The notes beneath the pieces were generated by a model. That model was not told the DNA's origin and ran no database searches. It was given only the letters and a program-made list of their open reading frames with translations. The position numbers were made by a program, and so were the translations under genes. From NCBI RefSeq assembly GCF_026626685.1, contig NZ_JAPNJX010000021.1, forward strand, positions 41,329 through 105,328: 64,000 nt of DNA. The letters are read 5' to 3'. The number at the start of each line of letters is the position of its first letter. The stretch's first letter is position 1. Shown in pieces: positions 3,698 through 62,641 of this stretch. The stretch is from Nannocystis sp. SCPEA4 (GTDB taxonomy: Bacteria > Myxococcota_A > Polyangia > Nannocystales > Nannocystaceae).

Positions 3698-5113
3698 ATG
3701 TCCACGGTCCCGGGACTCCGCGCGCTCATCACCCTCGCCTGGCCGATCGTGCTCGCACGCTCGGCGCAGTCGGTGATCAGCTTCAGCGACGCGGCGATGG
3801 TCGCTCCGCTCGGCGACGACGCGCTCGCGGCCGCGACCACCGGGGCCCTGAACTCGTTCGCCCTCCTCGTGCTGCCGATGGGCATCACGTTCATCGTCCA
3901 GAGCTACGCGGCCCAGCTGGCCGGCCAGGGCGACCTCGTCAGCGCGCGCCGCTACGCCTGGTACGGCCTGTGGCTCGCCGTCCTGGCGATGATCGCGGGC
4001 GTCGCTGCGATCCCGGCGATCGACCCGCTCCTCTCGCTGACCGGCCACGCGCCGGCGGTGCGCGAGGTGATGGCCGACTACATGTCGATCCGCATCGTCA
4101 GCGCCGGCGTGGTCGTCGGCACCGAGGCGCTCGGCAACTGGTTCGCCGGCCTCGGCAACACGCAGGTGGCAATGCGCGCCAGCTTGACGGCGATGGTCGT
4201 CAACATCGTCGTCAACTGGGTCCTGATCTACGGCAACCTCGGCGCGCCGGCGCTCGGGGTTCAGGGCGCGGCGTGGGCCAGCGTGCTCGCCAGCGTCGCC
4301 GGCTTCGCCGTCGCCTGCCACGCGTTCTGGCGCGCGCGCAAGCAGACGGCCGTCGACCCCGCGACCATCGGCCCCGTCGAGCACGCCGTACCTGTCCTTG
4401 CAGCCAGCTCGGACGGCCGCCTCAACGCGCGCGAGTTCTCGCGGATGCTGCGGTTCGGCCTGCCGAACGGCCTCAACTGGTTCCTCGAGTTCGCGGCCTT
4501 CCTGATCTTCATCAACGTCGTGCTCGCCGAGCTCGGGACCGTCGCCGTCGCGGCGCTCATGGCGGTGAGCGCCGTCAACTCGGTGTCGTTCATGCCGGCG
4601 TTCGGCCTCGCCTCGGCGGGCGCCGTGCTGGTCGGTCAGGCGATCGGCGGCGGCCGCCACGACCAGGTGCCGCGGCTCGTGCGCCAGACCTTCTCGGTCA
4701 CCGCCTGCTGGCAAGGGCTGGTCGGCCTGCTCTACTTCGCCATCCCGGTGCCGTTGATGATGATCTTCGCCCGCGACGAGGTCGCGGGCTCGAGCGAAGT
4801 GGTGGTCCTCGGCGCCCAGCTGCTGGCGATCAGCGCGGTGTGGCAGCTCTCCGATGCCGCCGTGATGACGGTCAACGAGGCCCTGCGCGCCGCCGGCGAC
4901 ACCGCGTGGCCCCTCGCGGCCCGCATCACCGTCTCCTGGGTGATCTGGCTGCCACTGGCATGGCTCAGCGTGTTCGTGTGGAAGGGCGGCGCGGTCGCGG
5001 CGACGTGGAGCATGGTCGTGTACATGGTGTTCCTCGCGCTGGTGCTCGTGCTGCGCTTCCGCAACGGGGCATGGCGGCGCATCGACCTCACCGGCCAGGG
5101 CGCCACCGGCTAG
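3698..5113 (+). CDS. MATE family efflux transporter
   Basis: 471 aa, 12 predicted hydrophobic helices. N-terminus LITLAWPIVLARSAQSVISFSDAAMVAPLG is typical of the NorM/MATE family. Confidence 0.75.
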   Translation: MSTVPGLRALITLAWPIVLARSAQSVISFSDAAMVAPLGDDALAAATTGALNSFALLVLPMGITFIVQSYAAQLAGQGDLVSARRYAWYGLWLAVLAMIAGVAAIPAIDPLLSLTGHAPAVREVMADYMSIRIVSAGVVVGTEALGNWFAGLGNTQVAMRASLTAMVVNIVVNWVLIYGNLGAPALGVQGAAWASVLASVAGFAVACHAFWRARKQTAVDPATIGPVEHAVPVLAASSDGRLNAREFSRMLRFGLPNGLNWFLEFAAFLIFINVVLAELGTVAVAALMAVSAVNSVSFMPAFGLASAGAVLVGQAIGGGRHDQVPRLVRQTFSVTACWQGLVGLLYFAIPVPLMMIFARDEVAGSSEVVVLGAQLLAISAVWQLSDAAVMTVNEALRAAGDTAWPLAARITVSWVIWLPLAWLSVFVWKGGAVAATWSMVVYMVFLALVLVLRFRNGAWRRIDLTGQGATG

Positions 5114-6505: not shown

Positions 6506-6650
6506 GCGGGGATTGTAGCGGCCGGCGGCGGGCTGCGCGAGCCTGTGCTTGTCGCTGGTGACGTCTGCTTATGGGGCGCTTGGGACATGTCCTTTTGAGC
6601 ATTGTCTTTTGGACATGACTGAATAGACAGTGTACTCGGCGGTGTGAGTG

Positions 6651-6950
6651 TCGTGCTTCGCGAACTGCCGAATGCGCCTCGCGGGCGGTCGGGGATGCGG
6701 TCCTCCGCCCAGTCCTCGCGGATGGACCCTCCTTCGTCGGGCCCATCTCGCTGCGGATGGTCGGAGGACCGCATCCCCGACCGCTGGCACGGCCCACTCG
6801 TGGGTGGCCCGAGCGCCGGTCGCGGGCTTCGCTGAGAGCTGTCTCTTCGAGCAGATTTATTCCGCCCGAGGGACGGCCGGGGCCGGCCATCCCTCGGACG
6901 GACCTCTGGGCGGAGTATCCGGCGCTCGCTCGTGACGCGACGATGTGCTG
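6651..6950 (-). repeat. Copy B of the ~297 bp structured interspersed element (inverted relative to copy A)
   Basis: The reverse complement aligns along its full length with 1569-1865 at more than 90 percent identity. Confidence 0.8.
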
Positions 6951-6952
6951 CG

Positions 6953-7145
6953 CGACAACCACGCGGTAACTCCGTCGCTCGCTCGTGACGCGACGATGAC
7001 TGCGAGACGACCGCGCTGCGACTCCGTCACTCGCTCCGCGACGACGTGCTGCACGACGACCATGCCGCGGCTCCGTCGCTCGCTCCGCGACGATCACTGC
7101 GCGACGACCACGCTGCGACTCCGTCGCTCGCTCCGCGACGATGAC
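6953..7145. repeat. Tandem ~42 bp repeat x about 4.5 abutting copy B
   Basis: Unit ...gcgacgaccacgctgcgactccgtcgctcgctccgcgacgatgactgc... The unit itself contains the terminal sequence of the element (cgctcgctcgtgacgcgacgatg). Confidence 0.75.
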
Positions 7146-10553: not shown

Positions 10554-10589
10554 GCGGCCGCGCGGGGACCGGCCGGGAGGCCCGGGGCC

Positions 10590-11189
10590 GTGATATGGTG
10601 CGCGCCGATGGCGTTTTGGACTCGCAAGGAGCGACCCGCCCCGTGTCCGAGCTGCGACGCGGCGCTGGACATCGGTCTCGTCAAGGACGGGAGCCCGACG
10701 TGCCCCGCGTGCGGGCAAGCGCTGGTGCCGGTGCGCGTCGCCGGCTTCTGGCGCCGCCTCGCGGCCGCGCTGGTCGACGCGGCGCTCCTGCTGGTGACGG
10801 CCGGCCCGCTGCACCTCGGCCTGCAGCGCGTGCTCGGCCAGCCGAGCCCGGTGCGCGGCGGGTTCTCGTGGGCCGGCCTGCTGCAGCTGCTCACCGTCGA
10901 CCCGCTCGAGATCCTCGTGTGGTTCGCGCCGCTGCTGGTGATGGTCGCGCTGTACTTCGTGCTGTTCATCGCCCTGTCCGGAAGGACACCCGGGCAGAAG
11001 CTCACCGGGATCCGCGTGGTCCACCGCGCCGGCGGCAAGGTCGGTCCGGTGCGCGCGACGGTGCGGTTCGCGGGCACCGCCGTCGGCCTGGTGCCCGGCG
11101 GCCTCGGCTCGCTGTGGATGGCCTTCGACCGCGAGAAGCGGGCCTTCCACGACTACCTGACAGGCACCTACGTCGTGAGGGAACAGTGA
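10590..11189 (+). CDS. RDD family membrane protein with N-terminal zinc ribbon
   Basis: CPSCDAAL...CPACGQAL zinc-ribbon. RDD domain with WRRLAAALVDAALL...RTPGQKLTGIRVV...FHDYLTGTYVV. Confidence 0.65.
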   Translation: MIWCAPMAFWTRKERPAPCPSCDAALDIGLVKDGSPTCPACGQALVPVRVAGFWRRLAAALVDAALLLVTAGPLHLGLQRVLGQPSPVRGGFSWAGLLQLLTVDPLEILVWFAPLLVMVALYFVLFIALSGRTPGQKLTGIRVVHRAGGKVGPVRATVRFAGTAVGLVPGGLGSLWMAFDREKRAFHDYLTGTYVVREQ

Positions 11190-14100
11190 GCCTCCTCCTG
11201 CGCCACCTCGAAGCCAACGGTCCGCTGTCGCGCGCCGATCTCGAGGCCGCGAGCCGGCGGCAACAACAGGCCGGCGGCAGCCTCGACACCGCGATCCTCG
11301 AGCTCGGCCTGATGACCCCGCTCGCGCTCGACGCCCTGCTGCAGAGCGCCTGCGGCCTCCCGGGCGCGCCGGTGCGGCTGCTCGAGCGCGGACCGACCCG
11401 TCCCTGGGAACATGTCCCGAGAGACCTGGTCGACATCGGCTGGGCCATGCCCCTCGCGGCCGAGGAGGGGCGCCTGATCGTCGCCGTCCACCCCGACCTG
11501 CCCGACGCCAAGCTCGGCCAGCTGTACCGCCTGATCCGCGGCTTCTACCCGGTGGTCGCGCCCGAGTGCTGCCTGGCCAAGGTCGCCGTCGAGCGCACCG
11601 GCGCCATCCTGGCCCCGCGCTACGCGTTGATCCTGCTCGACTACCTCGAGGCGCTGCGCAGCACGACCCCCACGGTCCACCTGCCCGCCTCGGACGCGCC
11701 GCTCCAGGACATACCTGTCCCGGCGGACAGGCAGAACGCCGGCCCCCGCCCGGCCGCGATGTCGGGCCCGGCCGTGGCCGCGCGCGCCAGCACGACGCCT
11801 GTCTCTTCGGAGAGCAGCGGTGCGAGCTCGCCGGCGGCCGCGCCTGTCGCTTCGGACAGGGCCGAGACCGCTCACCCGTCCGCTGCGGCTGCAGCGGATG
11901 CCACGGCGCGAGCGCCGGAGCCGACCGCGGACAACAGCGGCGCGACGCCGGCCTCTGCCGACCTGGCCGCTCCGTCTGCGTCCGCGCCGCCCGCCTCGCC
12001 TTCACCTGTCCCTTCGGACAGCGGCGCGCCTGACCGCTCGGACAGCGGTCTCGAGCCCGGGCCCGCCGCTCCCCGCCCGACCGTCGCGCCTGACCGTTCG
12101 GACAGCACTGCCGAGGCTGCATCTGTCCCTTCGGGCAGCACCGCCGCCGACCCGGCTGCGCCGGCCCGTTCGCACAGCAGCGATGCCGCGGCCGCCTCCG
12201 AGCCTGTCTCTTCGGACAGCACAAGGGAGGTCGCCCCCCCCGCGGCCGTCGCCTCGGCTGCCCACGACCTCGGCGCGCCGCGCAGCAGCGCCGCGCAGGC
12301 CGAAGCGGACCGCTCCGCCGAACCGGCGAGCGGCCATCAACCTGTCTCCGAGGCCAGCACGGCGGCCCCGTCTTCGCCTGTCCTGAAGGACAGCCCGGCG
12401 AGCGAGCCCTCCGGCGCCCAGCCCGTCACGGGCGAGTCGACCACCGCCGCGTCCGAGCCGCGACCCGAGCCGGAGGCGCCCGCGCGAGCCGTATCTGTCC
12501 CTTCAGACAGGGCCGAAGAAGCAGCTCCGCGCGCCGCGACGTCGATCACCGACGCGCCTGCCCCCGAGCCCGCCCCCAGCCGGGCGACCGGGACCGCGCC
12601 GATGCCGATCGCCGCCGCCGTCGCCAACCGCCCGCCCGTCGGCATGGAGGCAGTCCCGGTGGCTCCCGACGCGCCGCTCGTCGCCCCGCGCGGCTTCGAG
12701 GGCTTCGGCGGCTCCTCGCTGTCGGGGCTGGCCATCGCTCCGGACACGCCACTCATCATCTTGCCGCCGGAGGGCGCCGCCCCGGAACGCACCGGCCCCG
12801 CCAAGTTCGCGGTCAGGGAGACCGCGGCGTGGCCGGCCGCCGCCCGCGAGCGGCCCAGCCAGAGCCCGCCGTTCGAGCGCCCGGCCGTGGCCCCCGCCTC
12901 GGACCGGCCTTCGCCTGTCTCTTCGGACAGCCTCGCGCCCGCCCCGGCCGCACACGGCCCGAGCAACGGCGTCGCCCATCCGGCGGCTGCCGCCGCCGCC
13001 GCTCCGATCACACCTGTCCCGACGGCCAGCTCGCGCCCGGCCGACCCGGCCCAGGATGCACCTGTCTCTTCGGCCAGCCATGGGATGGTCGAGTCGTCGT
13101 CCCGCAAGCCGCCGCCGCCGCCGCAGCCGATGGTCATGACCCTGGCGCAGCGGCTCGACGCCGCCCGGGCGACGCTGGCGACCGCGCGCGAGCGCGACCG
13201 GATCACCGAGGCGCTGGTGCGCGCGGCCTCATTGGTCGCCCCCCGCGTGGCCCTGTTCGGGGTCAAGCGCGAGGGTCTGCGCGTCCTGGCCGCGCCCGGC
13301 AGCGCCCTGCAGCTGGCCGAGGGCGTCGTGCTCGCCTTGCCCGAGGGCGGCCTGCTCGATCGCGCCGTCACCGGCCAGGGCCCGCTGCACCTGCTGGCCG
13401 AGCCGAGCCTGTCGTCCGCGGTGGGTCAGCCGCTCGGGATCCCCTGCATCTTCGAGCCGGTCCTCGCCGGCGGCCGCACCGTCCTGATGCTCTACCTCGA
13501 CCGGGCCGGCGTCGCCTTCGATCCGCGCGAGCGGACCGTCCTGCGCGAGCTGTGCGACACCGCGAGGCAGAGCCTCGAGGCCCTGCTCCGGCTGCTCGGA
13601 TGGGTCGTGCCCGGCGGCACGCCCGGAGCGGGTCCGGCCGATCGCTCGCGCCCGGCCGTGCGACCGCACCTGGCGACGCCGGTGGTCACGGTCGACGAGA
13701 CCGACGCCGCGAGCACGGACGACGCCGAGGACAGCGCGCCGCAGGTCGCCGCGGCGGCCCCGGCCGAGCCCACCCCCGAGGCCGAGGAGCCCGAGGCACC
13801 GCTGCCCCCCGCGGGCGGCACCATCGAGCCCGGCTTCGGTGACAGCGCCTCGACCAGCCGCTCGCGCGGCCGCGGCAACAACCGCGGGCGCGCGGTCATC
13901 ACGCTGAAGAACCCGATCCGGCGCGACGAGCTGTCGACCGTGACCCCGCTGCCGGTCCGCCCCGAGAGCTCCGCGGCCACGCGCGCGCCGACGCTGGTGC
14001 TCGAGGATGCGCCCACCGACGCCGACGCCGACGCCGACGAGTCCGGCGGGCTGGACGCCGCCGAGCTCGAGCGCGAAGAAGAAGAGGACCGCCGCGACGG

Positions 14101-16258
14101 GCCCGGCCTCGGGCTCGCGCCGGTGCCGGTGCCGCTCGGCCCCGAGGGCGGGGACAGCCCGCTGGTCGCCCGCTTCGCCGCCCTCTACTCCAAGCCGCTG
14201 CCGTCGGTCACCATCGACCTGTCCGATCGGCCCAATACTTTCGGACATGCGCGTAACGACATGTCCTCCGCGCCAGCCGAGAGCGGGCCCGACATGCCCG
14301 GCTGGATCGCCGACTCCGAGGCCTCGGGCATCGAGGATCCGCTGCCGGTGGCGGACGCGCTGCGGACCGCGGGCCTGGCCGCCGGCGCCGAACGGGGCCT
14401 CGACCTCGATCCCGCCGCGACCTTGCCGGGCGCGCCGCGGGTCGTCCTCGACGAGGCCACGCGGGCCCGGGCCGCCGCGCCCGACCCCGAGTTCGACGCC
14501 TGGCCGCGCGCCGCCTCCGACACGCCGACGGTCCTCGACCTCTCGCCGCCGCCGGCCCACGAGCCGCCGATGGTGGAGACGCGCGCGACACCCGACGCCA
14601 AGACGGTCCTCGACATCCCGCCGCTCGATCCCACGGTCCCGCCGTCGACGCTGATCCCCAACCTGATCGCCCCGCCCGGCACCCCGGGCGCCGGCCGCCG
14701 CCGTCGCACGCCCGCGCCGGTCGAGGACGAGCCGGTGCTCGTGATCCCGAAGACCCTGCGGCGCCAGGGCGGGCTCACGGCCACCCCGCACCCGATGGCG
14801 CGCCGCAGCGATCCGAGCGGCGAGGACAGCACGGCCACGCTGTCGATACCGACCACGCTGATCGGCCCGCGCAGCGGTCGGCGCCGCGGCAAGCAGGAGC
14901 CGCGCTCCGAGGCCTCCTCGAGCGCGCTCAGCATGCCGCGGCTGGTGCGCGAGCCGGGGACGGACGACGCGTCCGATGATCCGGCCAGCGCCTCGACCTC
15001 CCGCGGGGCCATCCGGCATGCCCCCGACGACTCGGCCAGCGCCTCGACCTCCCGCGGCGCCACGCGGCATGGCCCCGACGACTCGGCCAGCGCCTCGACC
15101 TCCCGCGGCGCCATCCGCCGCGGCCCCGACGATTCGGCCGGCGCCTCGACCTCCCGCGGCGCCATCCGACTCGGCCCCGACGATCCGGCCAGCGCCTCGA
15201 CCTCTCGCGGCGCCATCAAACATGTCCTTGAGGACATGCCCGCCGCGACCGGTCCCGAGGAGCAGGTCGCCAAGGACAGCCCGACTCCGGCCCCCGCCCC
15301 CGCCGAGGACCTGGCTGCCGAGGAGCCCGAGGCGACCAGCGCCGACGCGGTCGCGCAGGCGGCCCTCAGCGACGACGAGATCGACGCGATCATCGAGGTC
15401 TTCCTGCAGAACCCGGCCGAGTGGACCAGCGTGTCGCGGCTGCGGGCGCTCGACCAGCGCGGCCTGGCCCGCCTGGCCGCGCGCTTCCCCGGACCGATCG
15501 ACCTGGCGAACGCGACCAACTTCCCGCCGCCGAGCGCCCACGGCCCGCTGCTGCGCGCCTGCGTCGAGCTCGGGCACGCGGTCAGCCCGCACATCCTGGC
15601 GCTGTTCGCCAGCGTGCGGCCGCAGATCCGCTTCTACGCCGCGTTCCTGTTCCAGGAGCTGCGCGACCCCCGGTGCCTGCGCCCGCTCGGCGAGCTCGCG
15701 TTCGACACCGACCCCGACGTGCGCCTGATCGCCACCCGCGTGCTCGAGTCGTACAGCCGCGTGCCCGACTTCGTCGCGGTCGCCGCCGAGATCCGCGAGG
15801 AGCTCGAAAGCCGCGACCGCGACCGCCAGCTGCTCGCGGTCGAGGCCGCCGGCACGCTACGCGACACCCTCGCCGTGCCGCGGCTGATCGACCTCCTGGC
15901 CGTGCGCGACAAGCACGTCCGCGAGGCCGCGCTCGAGGCCCTGTGCTCGATCACCGCCAAGCACCACGGCTACCGCGCCGCCCGCTGGCGCGCCTGGTAC
16001 GCCGAGCACGGCCACGAGCCGCGCATCGAGTGGGTCATCGACGGCCTGCGCCACCGCGACGAGGCCGTCCGCCGCTGGGCCGCCGACGAGCTGGCGCGGA
16101 TCACCGGCCAGCGGATCCCGTTCCCCGCCGAGGGCGACCGCCGCAGCCGCGACCTCGCCCTGCGCGCCTGGCAGGCCTGGTGGGACAGCAACCGCGAGGA
16201 CTTCACGCCGGCAGCCGAGGCCCGCCCCGGCGATGCACCGGCCGCCGGCGAGGACTGA
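11186..16258 (+). CDS. Giant (1690 aa) multidomain protein: GspE-N-like N-terminus, Pro/Ala/Ser low-complexity core, C-terminal HEAT repeats
   Basis: GTG start overlaps the RDD stop (GTGA). N-terminus LLRHLEANGPLSRADLEAASRRQQQAGGSLDTAILELGLMTPLALDAL resembles the T2SS-E N-terminal domain. The C-terminus carries multiple HEAT/PBS-lyase-like repeats (VRLIATRVLES..., HVREAALEALCSI..., EAVRRWAADELARI). Confidence 0.6.
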   Translation: MSLLLRHLEANGPLSRADLEAASRRQQQAGGSLDTAILELGLMTPLALDALLQSACGLPGAPVRLLERGPTRPWEHVPRDLVDIGWAMPLAAEEGRLIVAVHPDLPDAKLGQLYRLIRGFYPVVAPECCLAKVAVERTGAILAPRYALILLDYLEALRSTTPTVHLPASDAPLQDIPVPADRQNAGPRPAAMSGPAVAARASTTPVSSESSGASSPAAAPVASDRAETAHPSAAAAADATARAPEPTADNSGATPASADLAAPSASAPPASPSPVPSDSGAPDRSDSGLEPGPAAPRPTVAPDRSDSTAEAASVPSGSTAADPAAPARSHSSDAAAASEPVSSDSTREVAPPAAVASAAHDLGAPRSSAAQAEADRSAEPASGHQPVSEASTAAPSSPVLKDSPASEPSGAQPVTGESTTAASEPRPEPEAPARAVSVPSDRAEEAAPRAATSITDAPAPEPAPSRATGTAPMPIAAAVANRPPVGMEAVPVAPDAPLVAPRGFEGFGGSSLSGLAIAPDTPLIILPPEGAAPERTGPAKFAVRETAAWPAAARERPSQSPPFERPAVAPASDRPSPVSSDSLAPAPAAHGPSNGVAHPAAAAAAAPITPVPTASSRPADPAQDAPVSSASHGMVESSSRKPPPPPQPMVMTLAQRLDAARATLATARERDRITEALVRAASLVAPRVALFGVKREGLRVLAAPGSALQLAEGVVLALPEGGLLDRAVTGQGPLHLLAEPSLSSAVGQPLGIPCIFEPVLAGGRTVLMLYLDRAGVAFDPRERTVLRELCDTARQSLEALLRLLGWVVPGGTPGAGPADRSRPAVRPHLATPVVTVDETDAASTDDAEDSAPQVAAAAPAEPTPEAEEPEAPLPPAGGTIEPGFGDSASTSRSRGRGNNRGRAVITLKNPIRRDELSTVTPLPVRPESSAATRAPTLVLEDAPTDADADADESGGLDAAELEREEEEDRRDGPGLGLAPVPVPLGPEGGDSPLVARFAALYSKPLPSVTIDLSDRPNTFGHARNDMSSAPAESGPDMPGWIADSEASGIEDPLPVADALRTAGLAAGAERGLDLDPAATLPGAPRVVLDEATRARAAAPDPEFDAWPRAASDTPTVLDLSPPPAHEPPMVETRATPDAKTVLDIPPLDPTVPPSTLIPNLIAPPGTPGAGRRRRTPAPVEDEPVLVIPKTLRRQGGLTATPHPMARRSDPSGEDSTATLSIPTTLIGPRSGRRRGKQEPRSEASSSALSMPRLVREPGTDDASDDPASASTSRGAIRHAPDDSASASTSRGATRHGPDDSASASTSRGAIRRGPDDSAGASTSRGAIRLGPDDPASASTSRGAIKHVLEDMPAATGPEEQVAKDSPTPAPAPAEDLAAEEPEATSADAVAQAALSDDEIDAIIEVFLQNPAEWTSVSRLRALDQRGLARLAARFPGPIDLANATNFPPPSAHGPLLRACVELGHAVSPHILALFASVRPQIRFYAAFLFQELRDPRCLRPLGELAFDTDPDVRLIATRVLESYSRVPDFVAVAAEIREELESRDRDRQLLAVEAAGTLRDTLAVPRLIDLLAVRDKHVREAALEALCSITAKHHGYRAARWRAWYAEHGHEPRIEWVIDGLRHRDEAVRRWAADELARITGQRIPFPAEGDRRSRDLALRAWQAWWDSNREDFTPAAEARPGDAPAAGED
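14976..15235 (+). repeat. Tandem 60 bp (20 aa) repeat x about 5 inside the giant protein
   Basis: Encodes DDSASASTSRGAIRHGP-like units repeated five times. Confidence 0.7.
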
Positions 16259-16274
16259 CCGCGCGCGACCGCAG

Positions 16275-16375
16275 CAGCCTGCGGTTCAGGACATGTCGTC
16301 CTGCACATGTCGCCGAGGACATGCGGTCAGTGACATGTGAAAAAGGACATGGCCTCACGGCCATGCCCTTTCAGT
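16275..16375. repeat. Array of about 6 (G)GACATG motifs in a convergent intergenic region
   Basis: aggacatgtcgtcctgcacatgtcgccgaggacatgcggtcagtgacatgtgaaaaaggacatggcctcacggccatgccc. Confidence 0.5.
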
Positions 16376-16391
16376 CATGGGGCCGCGCGGC

Positions 16392-20935: not shown

Positions 20936-21098
20936 GTCAGCCCCTCCGAGAGGCAGCGATCGTAGCACGGGGCCACGACCGGCCCTGGGAGCGCACCAGG
21001 GCGCGCCCGCGCGCGGCGGGGATGGAGCGAACGAAGATGTCCTTTCGGACAGGCGTTCACCCGCGCGAGGACATGCATCGCGCGGTTCGATGTTCCGA

Positions 21099-39233: not shown

Positions 39234-40589
39234 TCAGACGCCACCCCCCTGCCCCACCCTGCCGGCGCGCCGGGCGGCCCGCTTCGCCGGCGCGGCGGAG
39301 GCTGTCTTTGCGGCCAGGTCGGGTGTGGAGAGCGCCGGGAACAGGTCGGTCTGAACTGTCCCTTCGCGCATGTTGGCCGGCGCACTCGCGGCTGGCTCTC
39401 GGGTCATGTTCGTGGGGATCTCCGCGGCTGTCTCTCGAGGCAGGCTCGTGGAGGCGTCCGCGAGTGTGTCTCCGGTCAGGTTCTTGGGGACGGTCGCGGG
39501 TGTCTCTCGGGTCAGGTCGCCCGCGGTGGGATGCGCCGGAGCTGGCGCATAGGACAGGGCGTCGGAGGCTGTCCCGGCGGACAGGTCCCCGCGGAAGTCG
39601 CGGACGCTGCGGATCGCCACCCGCCGCTTCTCGAACACGAGGAAGTACGAATGGTTCTTGCGCGCGTGGACCTGGGCCTTGAGCCGGCTGACGCCGGGGC
39701 TGTTGGGCCGCACGAGCACGAACAGGTCCTTGCAGTAGAGGCCGAGCGACTCGCCGCCTGTTATCAGTTCGACATGGGTGAGGCGCTGTTTGTTGGCGCT
39801 CACCTCGTCCTGGCACTTGACGATCAGGACGCCGCCCGGCACCAGCACGCGGGCGGCCTCGCGGCAGGCTTTCTCGTAGAGGTCGACGACCGCGTCGTGC
39901 CACTTGGGCCCGGCCTCGGTGGCGGCCGCGGCCGAATAGGCACGACGAAACGCGGCGTGGGTGCCGGAGCCGGCCATGTGGTCGACGCTGCGGCGGTACA
40001 TGCCCTCCATGTACGGCGGGTCGAGGACGACGCAGTCGAGGCTCGAGTCGCGGTACGGCAGGGCGCGGCAGTCGACGCCGCTCGTCAGCGTGGCGCCGGC
40101 GCGCGCGCTCACATCCGGCTTGAGGGCGATGTCGCTGGCGAGCAGCGTGTAACAGCCGGCCGGGACGCAGCGCCAGAACACGCCGAGGCCGTAGGTGACG
40201 TCGGCGACGGTGCTGCCCTTCGGGACATGCAGCGCGAGGATCTGCGCGAACAGCTCGGCGTTGTCGCCGACGCGCGCGGACACGACGACGTCGGTGGTGG
40301 CCACCCCACCCTGCACGCGGCGCGCGACGAGACGCGGAGCGGTCGCGGGCTCGCTCGCCGCGGAGTTCGGCTTCGCGGTGGCACCCTTCGGTCGCCCGCG
40401 GGGTGCCGTGGCGGGCGTCGAGACGCCGGAGGACTCACCCTGTCCACGACGGGCCCCGGAGTTCGGCTCCGCGGGGCCCTTCGGTCGCGCCTGGCGAGGA
40501 CGCGCCTCGGTGGCTTCTCCACGACCTCGACGCGGCTCTCGGCGCGTGGCGGGACGCGGCGCGGCGGCGGTACGGGGTCGGGCGGCCAT
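39234..40589 (-). CDS. Putative SAM-dependent methyltransferase (DPPY motif; N6-adenine/RsmD-like class) with disordered termini
   Basis: VTYGLGVF ... LLASDIA ... [15 protein letters not shown] ... LVPGGVLIV follows the order motif I - II - IV(DPPY) of amino-methyltransferases. Arg/Pro-rich N-terminus and repeat-built C-terminus. True start uncertain. Confidence 0.45.
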
Positions 40590-43500: not shown

Positions 43501-43553
43501 CGGCTCTGGCACATGTCCATCGGGACATTTCCCGAAGGACATGTCTCTCGGTG

Positions 43554-48506: not shown

Positions 48507-48824
48507 GACAGCAGCGCTCGACGACGCTCAGCAGGTCTTTCGCGTCAGCGGGCCGAGCATATGCCACGCTCGTCGCCACGGACAAGGACCTCGCTCTCGC
48601 GTCAGGGGCTGCGCAGGAGCGTGCGACGACCTCGCGGTGGCCGGCCGAGAGTCCGGCGAAGGTGCCGATCGATCCGCCCGCTGGCGAGCCCGAAGGCCAC
48701 GAAGACGAGGACGAGGACGCCGGAGGTGCCGAACCTATCGGTGTTGTAGTCGGCTGTCCCGAAGGACACCTCGCCGCGCGCCCGCGCCCCTCCCGGCGCC
48801 CGCGTCCGACGCTACACTCGCCGC

Positions 48825-49631: not shown

Positions 49632-49701
49632 GGGGCAGCGCTCGCACCTGTCCGATTCGCCATGTCGGATGTCCTTTCGGACATCCACCCTCGCCGCCGC
49701 C

Positions 49702-52326: not shown

Positions 52327-53838
52327 TTGCTGCACATGCGAACACGCCGTCCCTGCGCCGCCCTCACCCTCCTCCTGGCCTGCACGCCGTCCGACGGCGG
52401 CGACACCGACGCGACGACCGCGACCACCGCGACGAACGCCACGCCAGGCACCGACTCGAGCGACCCGACGAGCACCACGGACCCGACGTCGACCGGCGAC
52501 GAGCCGCCGACCGGCACCACCGCCGGCGACCCGGCGTCGACGACCGACGCGACGGCGACGACCGACGCGCCGCCGACGAGCACGACCGACGCGACCACCG
52601 GCGACAACCTGCACGGCCTCGTGCTCGAGGACACCTTCGAGGACGGGATCGCCAACGGGTGGGTCCGCGTCGAGCGGTGGTTCGACCCCGATCCGTTCTT
52701 CATTCAGGAGGACCGCTTCGACCTCGATCAGCGGGCCCACCAGACCGGCCAGCGGCTCGAGTTCTTCGGCAACGACCCGGTGCCCCACAGCGGACGGTTC
52801 CTCCTCTACTACGCGCCCGGCTGGAACAACGGCACCAAGGCGACGGTGCTGCTGGCCCACGGCGCCAACGACCAGGCCGATCGCGCGTGGGCCAACCCGG
52901 GCGAGAGCGGCGATTTCGGCTGCGGCCAGTCGAGCTGCCCCGACATCGGCCTGATGCAGGAGCTGGCGGCCGCGGGCCACCGCGTGTTCGCCGTCTCGCA
53001 CGCGCACAGCCAGGGCGACAACGTGTTCTGGGCGCTGCAGATCGCGTGGGCGATCGACATCATCCGCGAGCGCACCGGCGCCGACAAGGTCGACGTGATC
53101 GGGTGGAGCAAGGGCGTGATGTCGACGCGCATGTACGCGTCGGGGCTCACCGGCGGCAAGCTCGAGTACCGCGACGACATCGGCAAGCTGATCCTGATCG
53201 GCGGGCCGAACCTCGGCTTCGACTACATCTTCCGCTACGGCACCGCCCACAACGCCGGCGTCTACGCCGACTTCGGCGGCAAGATCCACGCGCCCGGGCC
53301 GCACGACGAGCTGCTGATCTTCGGCCTGTGGGAGGACCGCTCGGAGTACGGCATCTTCAAGTCGGCCGCCGGCGACAACTACCGCGGCCAGCTGCAGATG
53401 CTCGCGGCGTGGGACGACGTCTATCCGCTGACCGGCACCGCCAACAACGGCATCACGACGTGGCCGGTCGGCGACAGCGAGTCGACCTACTACGGCGAGG
53501 GCCAGTACAAGGGCGTGTACGGCCGCGGCAAGGGCATCGACTACGCGATCGAGCAGGGCTCGGTGATCGCCGACATGGTCGACGCCGGGATCCCGGCCTC
53601 CGTCTCGACCTACCTGCTGTGCGGCGACATCGACCTCAACGACAACACCGTGCTGATCCCCGGGATCCCCAACGAGATCGCCGGGCCGAGCGACGGCGTG
53701 GTGTTCGTCGACAGCTGCGCCGCGCCTGACGGCATCGGCACGCTCACCGACACGGCTGTCCTTCCGGACATCAACCACCTCAAGCTGGGCTGGCACCCCA
53801 CGGCCGCCGCCCAGATCTCGACGTGGCTGGCGCAGTGA
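52327..53838 (+). CDS. Secreted lipoprotein, lipase/esterase-like alpha/beta hydrolase with Thr-rich linker
   Basis: Lipobox LLLACTP. T-rich linker. GWSKG (GxSxG). LLAHGAND. Confidence 0.6.
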   Translation: MLHMRTRRPCAALTLLLACTPSDGGDTDATTATTATNATPGTDSSDPTSTTDPTSTGDEPPTGTTAGDPASTTDATATTDAPPTSTTDATTGDNLHGLVLEDTFEDGIANGWVRVERWFDPDPFFIQEDRFDLDQRAHQTGQRLEFFGNDPVPHSGRFLLYYAPGWNNGTKATVLLAHGANDQADRAWANPGESGDFGCGQSSCPDIGLMQELAAAGHRVFAVSHAHSQGDNVFWALQIAWAIDIIRERTGADKVDVIGWSKGVMSTRMYASGLTGGKLEYRDDIGKLILIGGPNLGFDYIFRYGTAHNAGVYADFGGKIHAPGPHDELLIFGLWEDRSEYGIFKSAAGDNYRGQLQMLAAWDDVYPLTGTANNGITTWPVGDSESTYYGEGQYKGVYGRGKGIDYAIEQGSVIADMVDAGIPASVSTYLLCGDIDLNDNTVLIPGIPNEIAGPSDGVVFVDSCAAPDGIGTLTDTAVLPDINHLKLGWHPTAAAQISTWLAQ

Positions 53839-57784: not shown

Positions 57785-59464
57785 ATGCGGGGTGTGGGGT
57801 CGGTGGTGGGGTTGGCGATCGTCACCGCGTGTTGCAGCTGCACGCCGCGGCCGCTCGACGGCGACGAGCACGGCGACACGAGCGTCGCGCCGCCGGCGAA
57901 CGAGCACGACGGCACGAGCGGCGCGCCGACCTCCGGCGAGCACGACGAGCCCGACGACACGAACGGCGCGACGACCTCCGGCGAGCCGTCGCCCGCGACG
58001 ACCGTAGCACCGCCCGACTCGAGCGAGACGGGCCTGCCCGACGACGGCTCCACGGGCGACGCCGAGCCGGGCGACCTGGCGAACACGGTGTGCGGCGAGT
58101 TCGTGATCGAGGATCCGGGCCTGGCGGCGAGCATCCTCCATCACCTCGACCTCGGCGGCGGCCCGATCTCCGCCGAACAGGCCGCGTCGCTGCTCGGACT
58201 GACGTACCACTCGTACTACGGCCCGTTGCAGACGCTGGCCGGGATCGAGTGCCTCACGCAGCTGCAGCTGCTTTCGTTCCGGGGCGCGGCGGAGGATCCA
58301 CAGCTCGATCTCGGCCCGGTCGCGGCCCTGCAGCAGCTCACCACGCTCTCCGTGTCCGACACGCCGTTGAGCGACCTGGCCCCGCTCGCAGGCTTGCCCG
58401 AGCTCGGCGCGATCTATTTGTACGGGGGACAGGTCAGCGACTTGAGCCCGCTGGCGCAGCTGCCCAAGCTCGAGCGGCTGCTCGTGAGCGACCACCCGAT
58501 CGCGTCGTTCGAGCCGCTGGTGGGTTCGCCGCTGCGTCACCTGGAGGCGCACACGATACCTCTGGCGGCCTTCGCCAGCGTGGGCCAGCTCGTGCAGCTG
58601 GAGCACCTCGACATGCGGGCGAGCGGGCTCACCGACATCTCGCCGCTCGCACCGTTGACCGGGCTCGTCTTCCTCGCGCTGTCCGACAACCAGATCTCCG
58701 ACGTCGGGCCGCTCGCGGGTATGAGCGCGTTGCAGCACCTGGACCTGGACCGCAACGCGATCGTCGATGTGGGGCCGTTGAGCGGCCTGAACGCGCTGCA
58801 GACCCTGGGCGTGGTCGACAACGCCATCGTCGACCTCGAGCCGCTGGCGGGCCTGGGCCAGCTGACGGACCTGTACGCCGCGGGCAACGAGATTGTCGAC
58901 CTCGAACCACTGGCGGGGCTGAGCGCGCTCGCACGGCTCTCGGCCGACGGCAACGCGATCGTCGACCTCCAGCCGCTCGCCGGGCACCCGGCGCTCGCTT
59001 CCCTCACCGTGGGGAGCAACGCGATCGTCGACGCGAGCCCGCTGGGCACGGCGCTGAAGCTCGAGTACCTCGACCTCTCCCACAACCCCCTGCAGCAGGG
59101 CCTCGACGTATTGACGGCGCATCCGGCTCTGACGTGCGTGTTCCTGAACGGGGTTGGGCTGACCGAGCTGCCGGTCCTCACGCCGCACCTGGTGGAGACG
59201 CTGGAACTGGAGAGCAACGCGATCGCCGACCTCGCGCCGCTCCAGGCCTACCAGTCGCTGACCACCGTCAGCCTCGTCGACAACGCGATCACGAGCATCG
59301 CGCCGCTGCTCGGCGCGCCGTGGCTCGCCCCCGAGGCCTGGATCGACCTCGATCTCAACCCGCTCAGCGCCGAGACGCTGGCGCACGACCTCCCGGCGCT
59401 GTGCGCCGAGATCTCGGTCAGGTGGAGCGCGGACGCCACATGCGGCGATCACGACTCGATCTAG
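57785..59464 (+). CDS. Leucine-rich repeat (internalin-like) lipoprotein
   Basis: Lipobox AIVTACCSC. Acidic linker. About 15 consecutive 22-aa LRRs (L..L.L..N.I.D..PLAGL). Confidence 0.7.
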   Translation: MRGVGSVVGLAIVTACCSCTPRPLDGDEHGDTSVAPPANEHDGTSGAPTSGEHDEPDDTNGATTSGEPSPATTVAPPDSSETGLPDDGSTGDAEPGDLANTVCGEFVIEDPGLAASILHHLDLGGGPISAEQAASLLGLTYHSYYGPLQTLAGIECLTQLQLLSFRGAAEDPQLDLGPVAALQQLTTLSVSDTPLSDLAPLAGLPELGAIYLYGGQVSDLSPLAQLPKLERLLVSDHPIASFEPLVGSPLRHLEAHTIPLAAFASVGQLVQLEHLDMRASGLTDISPLAPLTGLVFLALSDNQISDVGPLAGMSALQHLDLDRNAIVDVGPLSGLNALQTLGVVDNAIVDLEPLAGLGQLTDLYAAGNEIVDLEPLAGLSALARLSADGNAIVDLQPLAGHPALASLTVGSNAIVDASPLGTALKLEYLDLSHNPLQQGLDVLTAHPALTCVFLNGVGLTELPVLTPHLVETLELESNAIADLAPLQAYQSLTTVSLVDNAITSIAPLLGAPWLAPEAWIDLDLNPLSAETLAHDLPALCAEISVRWSADATCGDHDSI

Positions 59465-59596
59465 CCGGCGTATCGGACGAATGCGGCCGTGTTCTGCCCG
59501 AAGAGACATGGTGTCGGCCGGCGGGGGCTCTCCAGCCACCTGCCCTCAGGGACAGGTCGCATGAACCCGGCGAGCGGCGACGCTCACCGCATGCCC

Positions 59597-60562
59597 TCAA
59601 GGACATGTCGCAGGAGCCAGCTTGCAGTCGACGAACCAGGCGGCGACGTCGCGGCACTGCGGGTCCGAGCCGTCCTGGACGCAGGCGGTGAAGGCGGCGC
59701 GGTCGCGGAGGGAGCACAGGCGCGGCAGCTCCCACTTGCGGTCGCGGCAGCTGTGGTCGCGCGGGTCGCAGGTGCTGCGCATCCAGGTCGCGGTACCGTC
59801 GCCGCGGAGGAACACGCGGTCGTCGACGTTGCGATCGTCGGTGAGCGTGCTGACGCGCAGGCTGGCGGCGGCCGCGGCGGCGAGGGCCTGGTAGAGGCAG
59901 GCGTCGCCGTCGCCCGGGCTGTCGACGCAGGGGCGCGGCGAGGCGCAGGCGTCGAGCAGCGCCAGCGCGACGTCCCCCGGGCACCGCCCGGCCGCGCACA
60001 CGCATGCGCACTCGGGCGGGTCGTCGGTCCCGAGTCCGCACTCGGTCCAGCCTGCAGGGTGCTCGGGCCCGGGGAAATCGCTGGCCTTGCGGCCCACGCG
60101 GCGCACGTGGACCACGTCGCCGATCTTCTTGTAGAAGGCGCTGTCGTAGTCCCCGTCGCCTGTCGACGCGCTCGCGGTGGCGCACACGCCCGCCGACTCG
60201 AGGGCGCAGGTGGCCCGGTCGGCGATGCGCTCGGTGGCGAACCAGATGCAACCGGCGGCGTCGCAGTCGGCCTCGGCGGCGTGCGATTCGCACGGCTCGA
60301 CGGGCGTGGTAGCGACCTCGGGCGCGACCTCGCCGGTCGCGGTCGTCGTCGCGGTCCCCATCGCGATGGTGGTCGCGTCGCCGGTCGAGGTCCCGGGCGC
60401 GCCGGTGGTGGCACCCTCGCTGGCCTGCGACGGAGCGGCGCCGTCCGAGTCGGTGCCGCGCGACGACGCGTCGGACCGGCCGGGGCTACACCCGGTCGTC
60501 ACCAGCCACGAGAGGAAGCAGGCGGCGCCAGCCGGGCGCGCGCCAAAACCAAACCGCACGAT
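59597..60562 (-). CDS. Cys-rich secreted lipoprotein
   Basis: GTG start. Lipobox LVTTGC. Thr/Gly linker. About 20 Cys in the C-domain. Confidence 0.45.
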   Translation of the reverse strand: MVRFGFGARPAGAACFLSWLVTTGCSPGRSDASSRGTDSDGAAPSQASEGATTGAPGTSTGDATTIAMGTATTTATGEVAPEVATTPVEPCESHAAEADCDAAGCIWFATERIADRATCALESAGVCATASASTGDGDYDSAFYKKIGDVVHVRRVGRKASDFPGPEHPAGWTECGLGTDDPPECACVCAAGRCPGDVALALLDACASPRPCVDSPGDGDACLYQALAAAAAASLRVSTLTDDRNVDDRVFLRGDGTATWMRSTCDPRDHSCRDRKWELPRLCSLRDRAAFTACVQDGSDPQCRDVAAWFVDCKLAPATCP

Positions 60563-61171
60563 CCCAAGATGCCAGAGCGGCGCTCCGCGATCAAGAATCC
60601 ATCGCGCTGGCGGGTGCGGCGCGAGTGATGCGTGCCGCGACCTGTCGCCGGCCATGTGGGCCCGCGTCGCCGGTGTAAGAAGGCCCTGTTCGCCGGCAAC
60701 GATGACGCTTCATCGCCGGACTGTGCTTCCACCTCGTGGGCCTGGCCGGCGAGCAAGACGCTTCGCAGCTCGCGGTGCCTGCCCGGCGCGAACCACTTTG
60801 CTGACGACGGCCGCGGTGCCGAGCCGGCGGGCACCGCTCAGCGAAGTGCGGTGCACGAATCGCGGCGAAATGCCTCCATGATCGGCGTGTCGTGGTAAGG
60901 GCCGAGGTAACAAGGACAGCTGTCCGCGACGCCTCGCCGCGCGACGGACCGGAGCGCCGCAATGTGAGGGCGACCGGAAGTGATGACGGTGCAACGTCGC
61001 CGCAAGCATCGGCACCGCGCCGGCCCTCCGGGCGGACCCGCCCTGTCGCATCTTGCGACACAGCACCCCGCGGCAACCGGCACCGAGCGGAGCAGCCTCC
61101 GCCTGGCAGTCCGCGTCGGCGAGGCATCGCCGCGCGACCGACAGCCGGCACTCCGACCGCCCGCATCGCGC

Positions 61172-61466
61172 GGCACATCGTCGCCTCACGATCGAGCGCC
61201 GGCTACGACGTCCAGAGGTCCGTCCGAGGATGGCCGGCCCCGGCCGTCCCTCGGGCGGAATGCACCTGCGCGAAGAGACAGCCTGCAACGGAGCCCGCGA
61301 CCGGCGCTCGGGCCACCCACGAGTGGGCCGTGCCAGCGGTCGGGGATGCGGTCCTCCGACCATCCGCAGCGAGATGGGCCCGACGAAGGAGGGTCCATCC
61401 GCGAGGACTGGGCGGAGGACCGCATCCCCGACCGCTCGCGAGGCACATTCGGCAGTTCGCGAAGCA
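61172..61466 (+). repeat. Copy C of the ~297 bp structured interspersed element
   Basis: Aligns along its full length with 1569-1865. Confidence 0.8.
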
Positions 61467-61558
61467 GAACTCGGCGCTCCTCGCACATTCTTCAGGACAT
61501 GCCCGAAGCAGCATGTCCCATCAGACATGCCCAAAGCCGCATGCTCTCAGGACCAGCC

Positions 61559-62641
61559 TCAGCGTATCCCCGGAATGATGTCGAGCGAGGCGAGAAAGCG
61601 CCCGAGCTCGCGAATGTAGTCGCGCCGTCCGAGCTGCAGAAAGTGCCCCCCCGTGAAGCGAAACCGCCGGGGCCGCTGCCAGTGCTCCCACAGCAGGTCC
61701 GCATGCGCATCGGTAACCAGCGCGTCGCCGCGAGCCGTCACGACCAGACGGCGCTCCCACGGCACCTTCGGCGCGTACGACAGCGGGCTGTGCAGCGCCC
61801 ACGACTGGTGAAAGCGCTCGCGCGTCATCCCGAGCGCCTCCGCCTGGCGGCGGAACGGGTCGCCCTCCCCGTGATCCCACAGCAGGTACGCGAACGACGC
61901 CGGCGCCATGATCGGGACCACGAACGACAGCCGCGGATCGATCGAGGCGATCAGCGCCGACGTGTAGCCGCCGAGGCTCGATCCCATCATCCCGAGCGGC
62001 GCCGGGCTGTGGCGCAGGATCGCCGTGATCGCCGCGCGCACGTCCTGGGCCGTCTGGATGAACGCCTCGTTGGTGCGCACCAGGTCGGTCGACGGGAACA
62101 GCTCGCCGGAGAAGCGCGCCGCCGTCGGCTTGCGCGCGCTGTGGTACGGCTGGACGTAGAAGTACACGTCGAGCCCGAGGTCGCGGTAGAGCGTCGAGAT
62201 GCTGAACTCGATCTCGTGCAGGCGGCGGTGACCCACGCACCAGCCGTGCGCCAGCAGGATCGACGCCGGCGCCGGGCGGTCGTGCTGCCACGCGTGCAGG
62301 TGCACCGTGTCGACGCGGTCGTAGCTGGCGTACTCGCGCGCGTAGTCGGGGTCGCGCGGGCGGTACGGCGACGCGAACGTGAAGTGGGTCGCGCGGCCGT
62401 CGGCCAGGCGGCGCACCGACAGCGGGGCCAGGCGCGGCGGCGCGGCCGGGGGCGCGAGCATGCGATCGGGCTCGGCCAGCACCGCGGGGTCGGTGTAGCG
62501 GCCGACGGCCTCGAGCCGCCGCTCGTGTTCGGCGCGGGCGAGGCGGTCGAGCTCGTTGCGCTGCATGAGGACGCGGCGCAGGCCGTGGCGCATGACACGG
62601 TCGAAGCGGGCGCAGGCGTGGTCGGCGAGGGCGCTGAACAT
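61559..62641 (-). CDS. Alpha/beta hydrolase
   Basis: GSSLGG nucleophile elbow. HGW oxyanion region. Start at ATG 62641. Confidence 0.65.
   Translation of the reverse strand: MFSALADHACARFDRVMRHGLRRVLMQRNELDRLARAEHERRLEAVGRYTDPAVLAEPDRMLAPPAAPPRLAPLSVRRLADGRATHFTFASPYRPRDPDYAREYASYDRVDTVHLHAWQHDRPAPASILLAHGWCVGHRRLHEIEFSISTLYRDLGLDVYFYVQPYHSARKPTAARFSGELFPSTDLVRTNEAFIQTAQDVRAAITAILRHSPAPLGMMGSSLGGYTSALIASIDPRLSFVVPIMAPASFAYLLWDHGEGDPFRRQAEALGMTRERFHQSWALHSPLSYAPKVPWERRLVVTARGDALVTDAHADLLWEHWQRPRRFRFTGGHFLQLGRRDYIRELGRFLASLDIIPGIR

Follow-up and report, generated by a model that had tools for sequence, protein, structure and literature searches.

In-frame copies of a hyper-abundant, Nannocystaceae-specific interrupted palindrome in a giant Nannocystis protein are kept at the nucleotide level

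What keeps one short palindrome repeating inside a protein-coding gene? The question is raised by a giant gene (11186-16258, + strand, delimited by open reading frame and third-codon-position GC (GC3) frame analysis) in a 64,000-nucleotide stretch of Nannocystis sp. SCPEA4 DNA, about 72% GC and hereafter called the window. Its 1690-residue product, identical to that strain's protein, comprises a conserved N-terminal GspE_N-like domain, a variable, disordered core rich in Pro, Ala and Ser, a conserved middle domain and C-terminal HEAT repeats (HEAT_2 in Pfam, residues 1536-1589). An initial annotation, made from the window alone, had described a palindromic unit recurring in frame in this core and had likened it to Rickettsia palindromic elements. 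Here I report that what recurs in frame is a short interrupted palindrome, 5'-(A)CCTGTCC-N4-GGACAGG(T)-3', which is hyper-abundant in, and specific to, the Nannocystaceae and is kept at the nucleotide level.

A search of the core with the 18-mer CCTGTCYCTTCGGACAGC, allowing up to three mismatches, returned 12 copies between 11714 and 13078, all on the + strand, against 0.18 expected; three are exact (12005, 12203 and 12914). Two loop variants, at 12341 and 12377, bring the total to 14 units of the form (a)CCTGTCC-N4-GGACAG(G/C), every one of them in frame 0 of the giant gene and separated by heterogeneous spacers of 6 to more than 500 nt. The in-frame recurrence described by the initial annotation is thus borne out, and most of its roughly 12 positions were right to within a few bases; the copy it placed at 12055 is in fact two units, at 12029 and 12089, and the one at 11714 had been overlooked.

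The units can be read along the gene as follows. Unit 1 (CCTGTCC-CGGC-GGACAGG, 11714-11731) is a perfect palindrome with 7-bp arms, encodes PVPADR and folds as an RNA hairpin of -12 kcal/mol. It is followed by unit 2 (CCTGTCTCTTCGGAGAGC, 11798-11815, PVSSES), whose 3' arm is degenerate, and by unit 3 (CCTGTCGCTTCGGACAGG, 11843-11860, PVASDR). Unit 4 (CCTGTCCCTTCGGACAGC, 12005-12022, PVPSDS) matches the originally described sequence exactly, with a hairpin of -11.4 kcal/mol. Units 5 (CCTGACCGCTCGGACAGC, 12029-12046) and 6 (CCTGACCGTTCGGACAGC, 12089-12106) both give PDRSDS, unit 7 (TCTGTCCCTTCGGGCAGC, 12122-12139) gives SVPSGS, and unit 8 (CCTGTCTCTTCGGACAGC, 12203-12220, PVSSDS) is again an exact match. 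Unit 9 (CCTGTCTCCGAGGCCAGC, 12341-12358, PVSEAS) is a degenerate copy. In unit 10 (CCTGTCC-TGAA-GGACAGC, 12377-12394, PVLKDS) the arms are intact and the loop differs (-8.2 kcal/mol). The last four are unit 11 (TCTGTCCCTTCAGACAGG, 12494-12511, SVPSDR), unit 12 (CCTGTCTCTTCGGACAGC, 12914-12931, PVSSDS, exact), unit 13 (CCTGTCCCGACGGCCAGC, 13013-13030, PVPTAS), with a degenerate 3' arm, and unit 14 (CCTGTCTCTTCGGCCAGC, 13061-13078, PVSSAS), which does not fold (-1.3 kcal/mol) and has kept its 5' arm. The encoded peptides, PDRSDS, SVPSGS and PVLKDS among them, are more varied than the hexapeptide P-V-(S/P)-S-D-(S/R) proposed for the unit.

It is this variety, set against the constancy of the DNA, that carries the argument. 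Syntenic orthologues of the giant gene from six other Nannocystis genomes (L001-L006, L002 being N. pusilla; protein identity 91% down to about 57%) together with the window yielded 108 in-frame copies from seven orthologues. Across the seven species the arms are constant; the loops and spacers vary, both within arrays and between species. Outgroup species carry the loops CTGC, CCGC and TTGC on the same arms, giving PVPADR and PVLADS. The first codon of the unit is CCT, TCT, GCT, ACT or CAT, so that it ends in T in 106 of the 108 copies while the amino acid is P, S, A, T or H, and the last codon alternates between AGC (Ser) and AGG (Arg). Even the codon preceding the unit, a position that lay outside the search criterion, ends in A in 64 of 108 copies (59%, where 1.8% is the background at third positions) and has a final C in only 2 (background 55%), whatever amino acid it encodes. 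The orthologue of unit 1, beside a conserved DRQ.AGPRPAAMSGP block, keeps all 14 arm bases in 7/7 species under five different loops, and unit 3 is identical in the window, L001 and L002.

These arms are spelled in codons that the genome otherwise avoids. CCT, TCT and AGG make up 2.1%, 0.6% and 1.7% of the codons for their amino acids in the other genes of the window. In the core of the giant gene, CCT accounts for 18 of 81 Pro codons, TCT for 9 of 69 codons and AGG for 5 of 27, nearly all of them within units (15 of the 18 CCT codons), and the remainder of the gene uses CCT for none of its 132 Pro codons. At 72% GC each A or T forced by the motif into a third position is conspicuous, which makes such signatures unusually readable. 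A peptide repeat would keep its amino acids and leave synonymous codons free; here the nucleotides, rare third positions included, are kept and the amino acids vary. The initial annotation had held the repeated entity to be a palindromic DNA unit, and had suggested looking for orthologues that encode the same peptide in divergent, non-palindromic DNA; the seven orthologues gave the opposite result. The constraint acts on the nucleotides and not on the peptide, and P-V-x-x-D-(S/R) is a by-product because it is the DNA motif that is constrained. The disordered core of the giant protein, with its 14 copies, would then serve as a permissive sink.

How widespread is the palindrome? A scan of the genomes of 185,579 species with CCTGTCYCTKCGGACAGS returned at least 120 loci; among the matches listed, 65 belong to Nannocystis or other Nannocystaceae, at many unrelated loci, and the others are single hits in scattered, unrelated phyla. 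With the match that selected each locus excluded, the Nannocystaceae loci contain 122 further perfect TGTCC-N4-GGACA sites in 488 kb (0.25 per kb), compared with 2 in 412 kb of non-Nannocystaceae loci and none in the 109 kb of these with GC of at least 66%. In all, 603 kb of Nannocystaceae DNA, that is, the loci picked for containing the motif plus the window, hold 212 perfect sites where 0.5 are expected, an excess of about 400-fold, in which the choice of motif-containing loci biases the densities upwards. A distant Nannocystaceae metagenome-assembled genome (MAG), L127, has 14 sites in 20.6 kb; L128, a related Myxococcales MAG from outside this group, has none in 20.6 kb. The extended consensus is (A/G)CC-TGTCC-N4-GGACA-G(G/C)(T/C). 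Within the window, nine more perfect sites lie outside the core (about 0.1 expected for the whole window), and a 14-position consensus with up to two mismatches finds 23 sites where 0.7 are expected. I found no description of palindromic repeats in Nannocystis or other myxobacteria, or of a TGTCC/GGACA motif, in the searchable literature, and no part of the window matched Rfam at its gathering threshold.

The sites are found both within and between genes, as called by a simple GC3-based method that is approximate and weakest in disordered regions of low GC3. In the 603 kb, 123 of the 212 perfect sites (58%) fall in called genes, at 0.25 per kb, and 89 are intergenic, at 0.8 per kb. Intergenic density is highest between convergent genes (2.4 per kb, against 0.7 for tandem and 0.55 for divergent pairs); some short convergent regions consist of little more than one or two units, and rows of two to six occur. 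Among intergenic sites, 38% lie within 30 nt of a gene 3' end (background 7%), and sites are depleted near 5' ends. The coding copies are distributed over the three frames as 83:24:16, yielding PVxxD[SR], LSxGT and CPxGQ. In the dominant frame, xxT GTC Cxx xxG GAC Axx, the arms are read as two preferred codons, GTC (61%) and GAC (90%). The second frame, L-S-x-G-T, is used by a gene of the RDD family and by the tail of a DNA methyltransferase (unit at 39568), both described below. Two Ser/Thr kinases and a lipoprotein are among the other proteins whose disordered linkers contain arrays of units.

The orthologues also reveal how copies arise and persist. In L002, L006 and L127 the units stand in tandem repeats of 27-45 nt (periods of 27, 36 and 42, for example) with similar spacers, and I therefore conclude that these arrays grew as unit and spacer were duplicated together in tandem; the loops and spacers inside them have diverged, the arms have not. 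A clean difference of 18 bp, the length of one unit, was found once, other length differences being whole repeat periods. In the conserved flank GCG GTC|AGG GAG (12809-12823, + strand), L002 carries an extra ACGCCTGTCTCTTCGAGC between GTC and AGG, where the window (junction 12814/12815) and L001 read GTC AGG directly and the outgroups cannot be aligned; the rare codon AGG sits at this junction. The initial annotation had the linker built by repeated insertion or amplification. The unit has indeed been amplified within disordered linkers, but the growth that can be traced is tandem duplication and not a series of independent insertions.

Other copies have not moved. The RDD-family gene (10590-11189) contains, in a frame other than that of the giant gene, the copy C CTG TCC GGA AGG ACA CC (10973-10990, + strand, LSGRT), spelled with the rare codons GGA (2.5%), AGG (1.7%) and ACA (3.8%). 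Its arms are identical in 7/7 Nannocystis species, L006 differing at one loop base (GGGA for GGAA). The residues G-R-T are invariant across the family, with no indel, and L127 encodes the same ALSGRT with the preferred codons GGC CGC ACG and has no palindrome there. This copy was thus formed by synonymous rare codons without an indel, so insertion is not the only origin of units. An intergenic copy, GATGTCC-TTTC-GGACAGG (21036-21053), 47 nt past the stop codon of a sigma-54 activator gene, has held its position at all six orthologous loci with different loops and is recognisable in 7/7 species including the window; in L006 it reads CCTGTCTCTTCAGCCAGC. In a loop of a MatE gene, the decayed copy CCTGTCCTTGCAGCCAGC (4391-4408, + strand) corresponds to a perfect palindrome at the orthologous position in L003 and L006, so that this copy too holds its position across species, with a changed loop or partial decay. 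That several copies are fixed in position argues against an actively transposing element. Such conservation is documented for individual cases (10973, 21036 and unit 1 of the giant gene) and not as a genome-wide statistic. The copies are selected or driven, and not just inserted.

If the palindrome is kept as nucleotides, is it read as DNA or as folded RNA? The spacing is all but invariant: against 212 sites with N4 there is a single site with N3 and none with N5 or N6, the nine sites in the window outside the core all have a 4-nt spacer, and an everted arrangement with a spacer of 3-6 nt does not occur in the window. For the central T-A pair, variants in a single arm are about 20 times as frequent as chance, and compensated doubles (C-G, G-C or A-T) occur at chance. 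Variants that would leave a G·U pair on the sense strand are as common as the mirror C·A variants (22 and 23 in coding sites, 14 and 11 in 3' intergenic sites). Positions -3 and +3 show a symmetric purine/pyrimidine preference and are mutually independent, with no pairing covariation. One arm, rare codons included, survives in degenerate units that have lost the ability to fold. The fixed 4-nt spacing, the absence of compensatory covariation and the lack of a G·U bias speak for recognition that is sequence-specific and strand-symmetric rather than for a plain RNA hairpin, and a pair of half-sites, each recognised independently, accounts for the variation better than a stem under selection. PadR-type ATGT-N8-ACAT sites and CRP/FNR-type 5-N4-5 sites resemble the unit in layout, which I take to be resemblance only. 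I also considered a single arm as the repeated entity, in the manner of an uptake sequence. CCTGTCC occurs 215 times and GGACAGG 145 times, each against about 78 expected, but by a rough estimate arms inside palindromes account for most of this excess; with the single arm not enriched once these are discounted, and given the strict N4 spacing, I rejected this candidate.

The reading I favour is that of a DNA palindrome of the HIP1 or uptake-sequence type, which a dimeric factor would read and which selection or drive would maintain, with disordered linkers as its sink; taken as a whole, I would give it about an even chance of being right. The palindrome would most likely be read as double-stranded, strand-symmetric DNA by a putative dimeric sequence-specific factor, and selection or molecular drive would keep it abundant. 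Copies would gather where they are cheapest, namely in short intergenic regions at gene 3' ends and in disordered protein linkers, and within coding DNA mainly in the frame xxT GTC Cxx xxG GAC AGx, in which the arms would spell the preferred GTC and GAC. Copy number would shift as unit and spacer are duplicated together in tandem and, now and then, as a whole unit is gained or lost; new copies could also come from point substitution. Candidate roles include nucleoid organisation, DNA uptake or self-recognition, a methylation-linked process and the handling of transcript 3' ends. A more specific proposal, which I put forward only tentatively, is that of an undescribed, hyper-abundant 20-bp interrupted palindrome under purifying selection and read by a dedicated dimeric DNA-binding system, for nucleoid organisation or for uptake and self-recognition, that incidentally writes PVxxDS, LSxGT and clusters of rare codons into the disordered linkers of dozens of proteins.

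Several points weigh against this reading. That a dimeric factor reads the palindrome is something I infer. The tests of covariation and G·U symmetry drew on a few hundred sites, from loci selected for the motif. Perfect units do fold as RNA, at -6 to -12 kcal/mol, and there are weak signs of pairing: T-A doubles at the loop-closing pair number 9 against about 4 expected under independence, and in intergenic sites the -1/+1 flank covaries as C..G or A..T, a pattern that may equally reflect two subfamilies or abutting units. For 21% of intergenic sites the distance to a gene 3' end is 10 nt or less, where the background is 3%. Clustering at 3' ends together with folding is exactly what an RNA 3'-end hairpin or a REP-like (repetitive extragenic palindromic) element would predict. 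Finally, the clean 18-bp indel and the tandem arrays mean that copy-number processes matter besides selection.

The main rival is accordingly a REP-like hairpin acting in RNA as a 3'-end terminator or exonuclease block between genes, with the intragenic copies as spill-over of the copying process. It accounts well for the proximity to stop codons: the threefold higher density in intergenic DNA, its peak between convergent genes, the scarcity of sites near 5' ends and those convergent regions that are nearly nothing but one or two units are all in its favour. The region past the giant gene forms a run of four hairpins on folding (z = -4.8), and the 21036 unit was scored as terminator-like. It does not, however, explain arms that fail to covary and conserved copies within genes. 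The arm sequence is fixed and not merely complementary, the loop never varies in length, there is neither compensatory change at the central pair nor an excess of sense-strand G·U, and more than half of the perfect sites lie in genes, including the conserved RDD copy made by synonymous substitutions. An intrinsic (Rho-independent) terminator was rejected, the hairpin being present but the T fraction downstream of oriented intergenic units, 0.15, standing at background (about 0.14 overall), with no U-tract; the covariation tests and the symmetry of the G·U variants tell against a hairpin selected for its structure alone. On this evidence I regard the RNA-level explanation as unlikely, though it is the one to be taken most seriously after the DNA-level reading.

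A small mobile palindromic element, mobilised in trans and inserting in frame so that each unit is an independent 18-bp insertion, is considerably less probable. The clean presence/absence difference inside a conserved flank is what it would leave behind, unit 5 (12029) is present in the window and missing from L001, and units without conserved flanks are dispersed over unrelated loci. Against it stand the RDD copy, formed without insertion, the positions held across species at about 60% protein identity, and the arrays, which are tandem duplications of unit plus spacer. At 18 bp the unit is also far below the size of any described miniature inverted-repeat transposable element (MITE) or Rickettsia palindromic element (about 150 bp; PMC10969869), and neither target-site duplications nor terminal repeats were seen.

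Very improbable, in turn, is a translation-level device in which clusters of rare codons and a hairpin slow ribosomes in inter-domain linkers and so aid co-translational folding. The units do join rare codons (CCT, TCT, AGG and NNA) to a stable hairpin, and in several proteins they do lie in disordered linkers between folded domains, but they are three times denser in untranslated intergenic DNA and are found antisense to genes as well as in each of the three frames, and a preference for rare codons of whatever kind would not settle on one particular nucleotide sequence. As for an ordinary peptide repeat or short linear motif PVxxDS, whose likeness at the DNA level would stem from recent duplication and gene conversion, the similar spacers of the orthologous tandem arrays and the recurrence of the peptide in several proteins' linkers speak for it, but rare codons kept in seven species while codon 1 varies among P/S/A/T/H and codon 6 between S and R, a preceding third base constrained independently of the amino acid, and identical units in intergenic DNA and in two other reading frames have already refuted it in practice and leave it a negligible chance.

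How does the palindrome compare with known systems? Its closest analogues are cyanobacterial HIP1, REP elements and DNA uptake sequences, and not Rickettsia palindromic elements; it has features of each, yet lacks at least one defining feature of REP elements, Rickettsia palindromic elements and uptake sequences. HIP1 (GCGATCGC) is a short, lineage-specific palindrome, 15- to 300-fold over-represented both inside open reading frames and in the DNA separating them in cyanobacteria, and its conservation at orthologous positions points to selection rather than neutral replenishment, with no evident role in peptide or RNA (PMC5861425). The Nannocystaceae unit is likewise in excess in coding and non-coding DNA, likewise conserved at orthologous positions in individual cases, and strand-symmetric in its variation. 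HIP1, however, is an uninterrupted palindrome of 8 bp whose cognate methyltransferases are known (PMC4390886), whereas the unit described here consists of two arms of 7-8 bp around a free 4-nt spacer, is strongly biased to gene 3' ends and forms tandem arrays in disordered linkers.

Uptake sequences such as the Neisseria DUS and the Pasteurellaceae USS number in the hundreds to thousands and, like the unit here, lie both in coding and in non-coding DNA. Their choice of frame follows preferred codons, they fall at poorly conserved protein positions and they distort peptide frequencies (PMC2817400), much as the Nannocystaceae unit has a dominant frame with GTC and GAC and arrays in disordered linkers. 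They are, however, non-palindromic 9-12-mers acting as single sites, in contrast to a palindrome with an exact N4. REP elements are short, high-copy palindromes that follow genes, often in clusters, and are extragenic and linked to RAYT transposases (PMC3116915). The enrichment of the Nannocystaceae units just past stop codons and in convergent regions, two to six in a row, is similar; their frequency within called genes is not, and whereas REP/REPIN sequences are imperfect palindromes of 20-40 bp that replicate as inverted doublets, the present unit has perfect arms and 18-20 bp. Rickettsia palindromic elements are MITE-like in-frame insertions of about 150 bp; each encodes a conserved peptide, an addition tolerated by the host protein (PMC10969869). 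Palindromic DNA in frame inside protein genes, adding tolerated peptide segments, is common to both. The likeness drawn by the initial annotation is nevertheless weak, since the unit has 18-20 bp without conserved flanks instead of 100-150 bp, its peptide varies with loop and frame, some copies come from point substitution and the arrays from tandem duplication.

Further copies in the window show the range of settings in which the unit occurs. In the C-terminal part of the giant gene, CATGTCC-TTGA-GGACATG (15221-15238, + strand, HVLEDM) is in the same frame as the core units and belongs to a class flanked by CA..TG; L001 has it as well, and L006 has a version whose loop is CCGA. Just before it (14982-15217, + strand), the C-terminal half of the gene contains a separate, non-palindromic 51-bp tandem repeat of 4.6 copies (91% matching) that encodes DDSASASTSRGAIRHGP. 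In the L127 orthologue of the giant gene (10579-16389), the N-proximal disordered region is made of a different repeat (...ADPRVADPRTADPR... and TRTVLDGPRVAHDRPADPRL...), and the palindromic array is in another, more C-terminal linker (14674-15030); the linkers of this family therefore turn over independently. Another gene (52327-53838) has the copy GCT GTC CTT CCG GAC ATC (53755-53772, + strand, AVLPDI) in the giant gene's type of frame.

The C-terminal tail of the DNA methyltransferase contains an array of about seven degenerate units with a period of about 36 nt (39301-39585, - strand), of which one, at 39568-39585, is well preserved. Translation of these units runs in the LSxGT frame and yields peptides of the type D-L-S-A-G-T. 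The initial annotation had proposed that this tail was built from the same unit as the giant protein's linker; a decayed array is indeed there, in a different frame and mostly degenerate. The methyltransferase gene itself (39234-40316, - strand, Pfam N6_N4_Mtase) lies between a sigma-54 activator gene and an acyl-CoA dehydrogenase gene, with no restriction-enzyme gene adjoining, and beyond the tail array I found nothing that links it to the palindrome.

The motif had also been noted in non-coding DNA of the window, and units are indeed present there, as well as in the other genes already described. Immediately after the giant gene, in a convergent intergenic region, is the array of abutting, partly degenerate 14-bp units (...GGACA|TGTCC...; 16287-16360) that folds into the four hairpins mentioned above; Tandem Repeats Finder (TRF) gives it a period of 14, and it is conserved in L001 and L002. 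Single intergenic units are found at 43512-43529 (CATGTCC-ATCG-GGACAT), 26 nt past a stop codon; at 48753-48770 (GCTGTCC-CGAA-GGACACC), in a divergent region; and at 49668-49685 (GATGTCC-TTTC-GGACATC), between convergent genes whose stop codons are 38 and 18 nt away. Two more lie in stretches without a called gene, at 59539-59556 (CCTGCCC-TCAG-GGACAGG, one mismatch) and 63139-63156 (CATGTCC-TCGG-GGACAGA). The heptamers GGACATG and CATGTCC number 23 and 19 in the window, against about 3 expected each, and form intergenic clusters with 14-nt spacing at 16287-16360, 6583-6617 and 43512-43543. I considered the GGACATG excess as a separate element and rejected this, as 14-bp units that abut directly account for it, and also for CATGTCC and for the 10-bp palindrome GGACATGTCC, of which the 603 kb contain 33 instances. 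Some tandem gene pairs, few in number, have a unit whose final ATG is at the same time the start codon of the next gene.

A dispersed repeat of about 305 bp is present in three intergenic copies that are 94-96% identical (6650-6965, + strand; 1563-1866 and 61166-61466, - strand). It contains a 20-bp internal inverted repeat (GGTCGGGGATGCGGTCCTCC...GGAGGACCGCATCCCCGACC), has no Rfam match and is found at orthologous intergenic positions at 95-97% identity in L001 and L002 and 79-82% in L003-L006, which suggests a conserved structured RNA or an old MITE. The repeat and the palindromic units share the 11-mer CTGTCTCTTCG; I rejected the repeat as parent of the units, as intergenic units elsewhere lack such flanks. 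One of its copies lies in a stretch of about 2 kb without a confident GC3 gene call (59464-61559), together with the 59539 unit and GGACATG words.

What would such a motif mean for these bacteria? If the DNA-level reading is true, the evolution of protein sequence in the Nannocystaceae is driven in part of its course by a genome-level DNA signal, and low-complexity disordered segments can be shaped mainly by such a signal and not by peptide function, which bears on how repeats in proteins are interpreted. The palindrome would add a well-delimited case to the few hyper-abundant bacterial motifs, HIP1, REP elements and uptake sequences, among which the function of HIP1 is still debated. It would also provide a 20-bp probe with which to search for the corresponding factor in little-studied myxobacteria with very large genomes.

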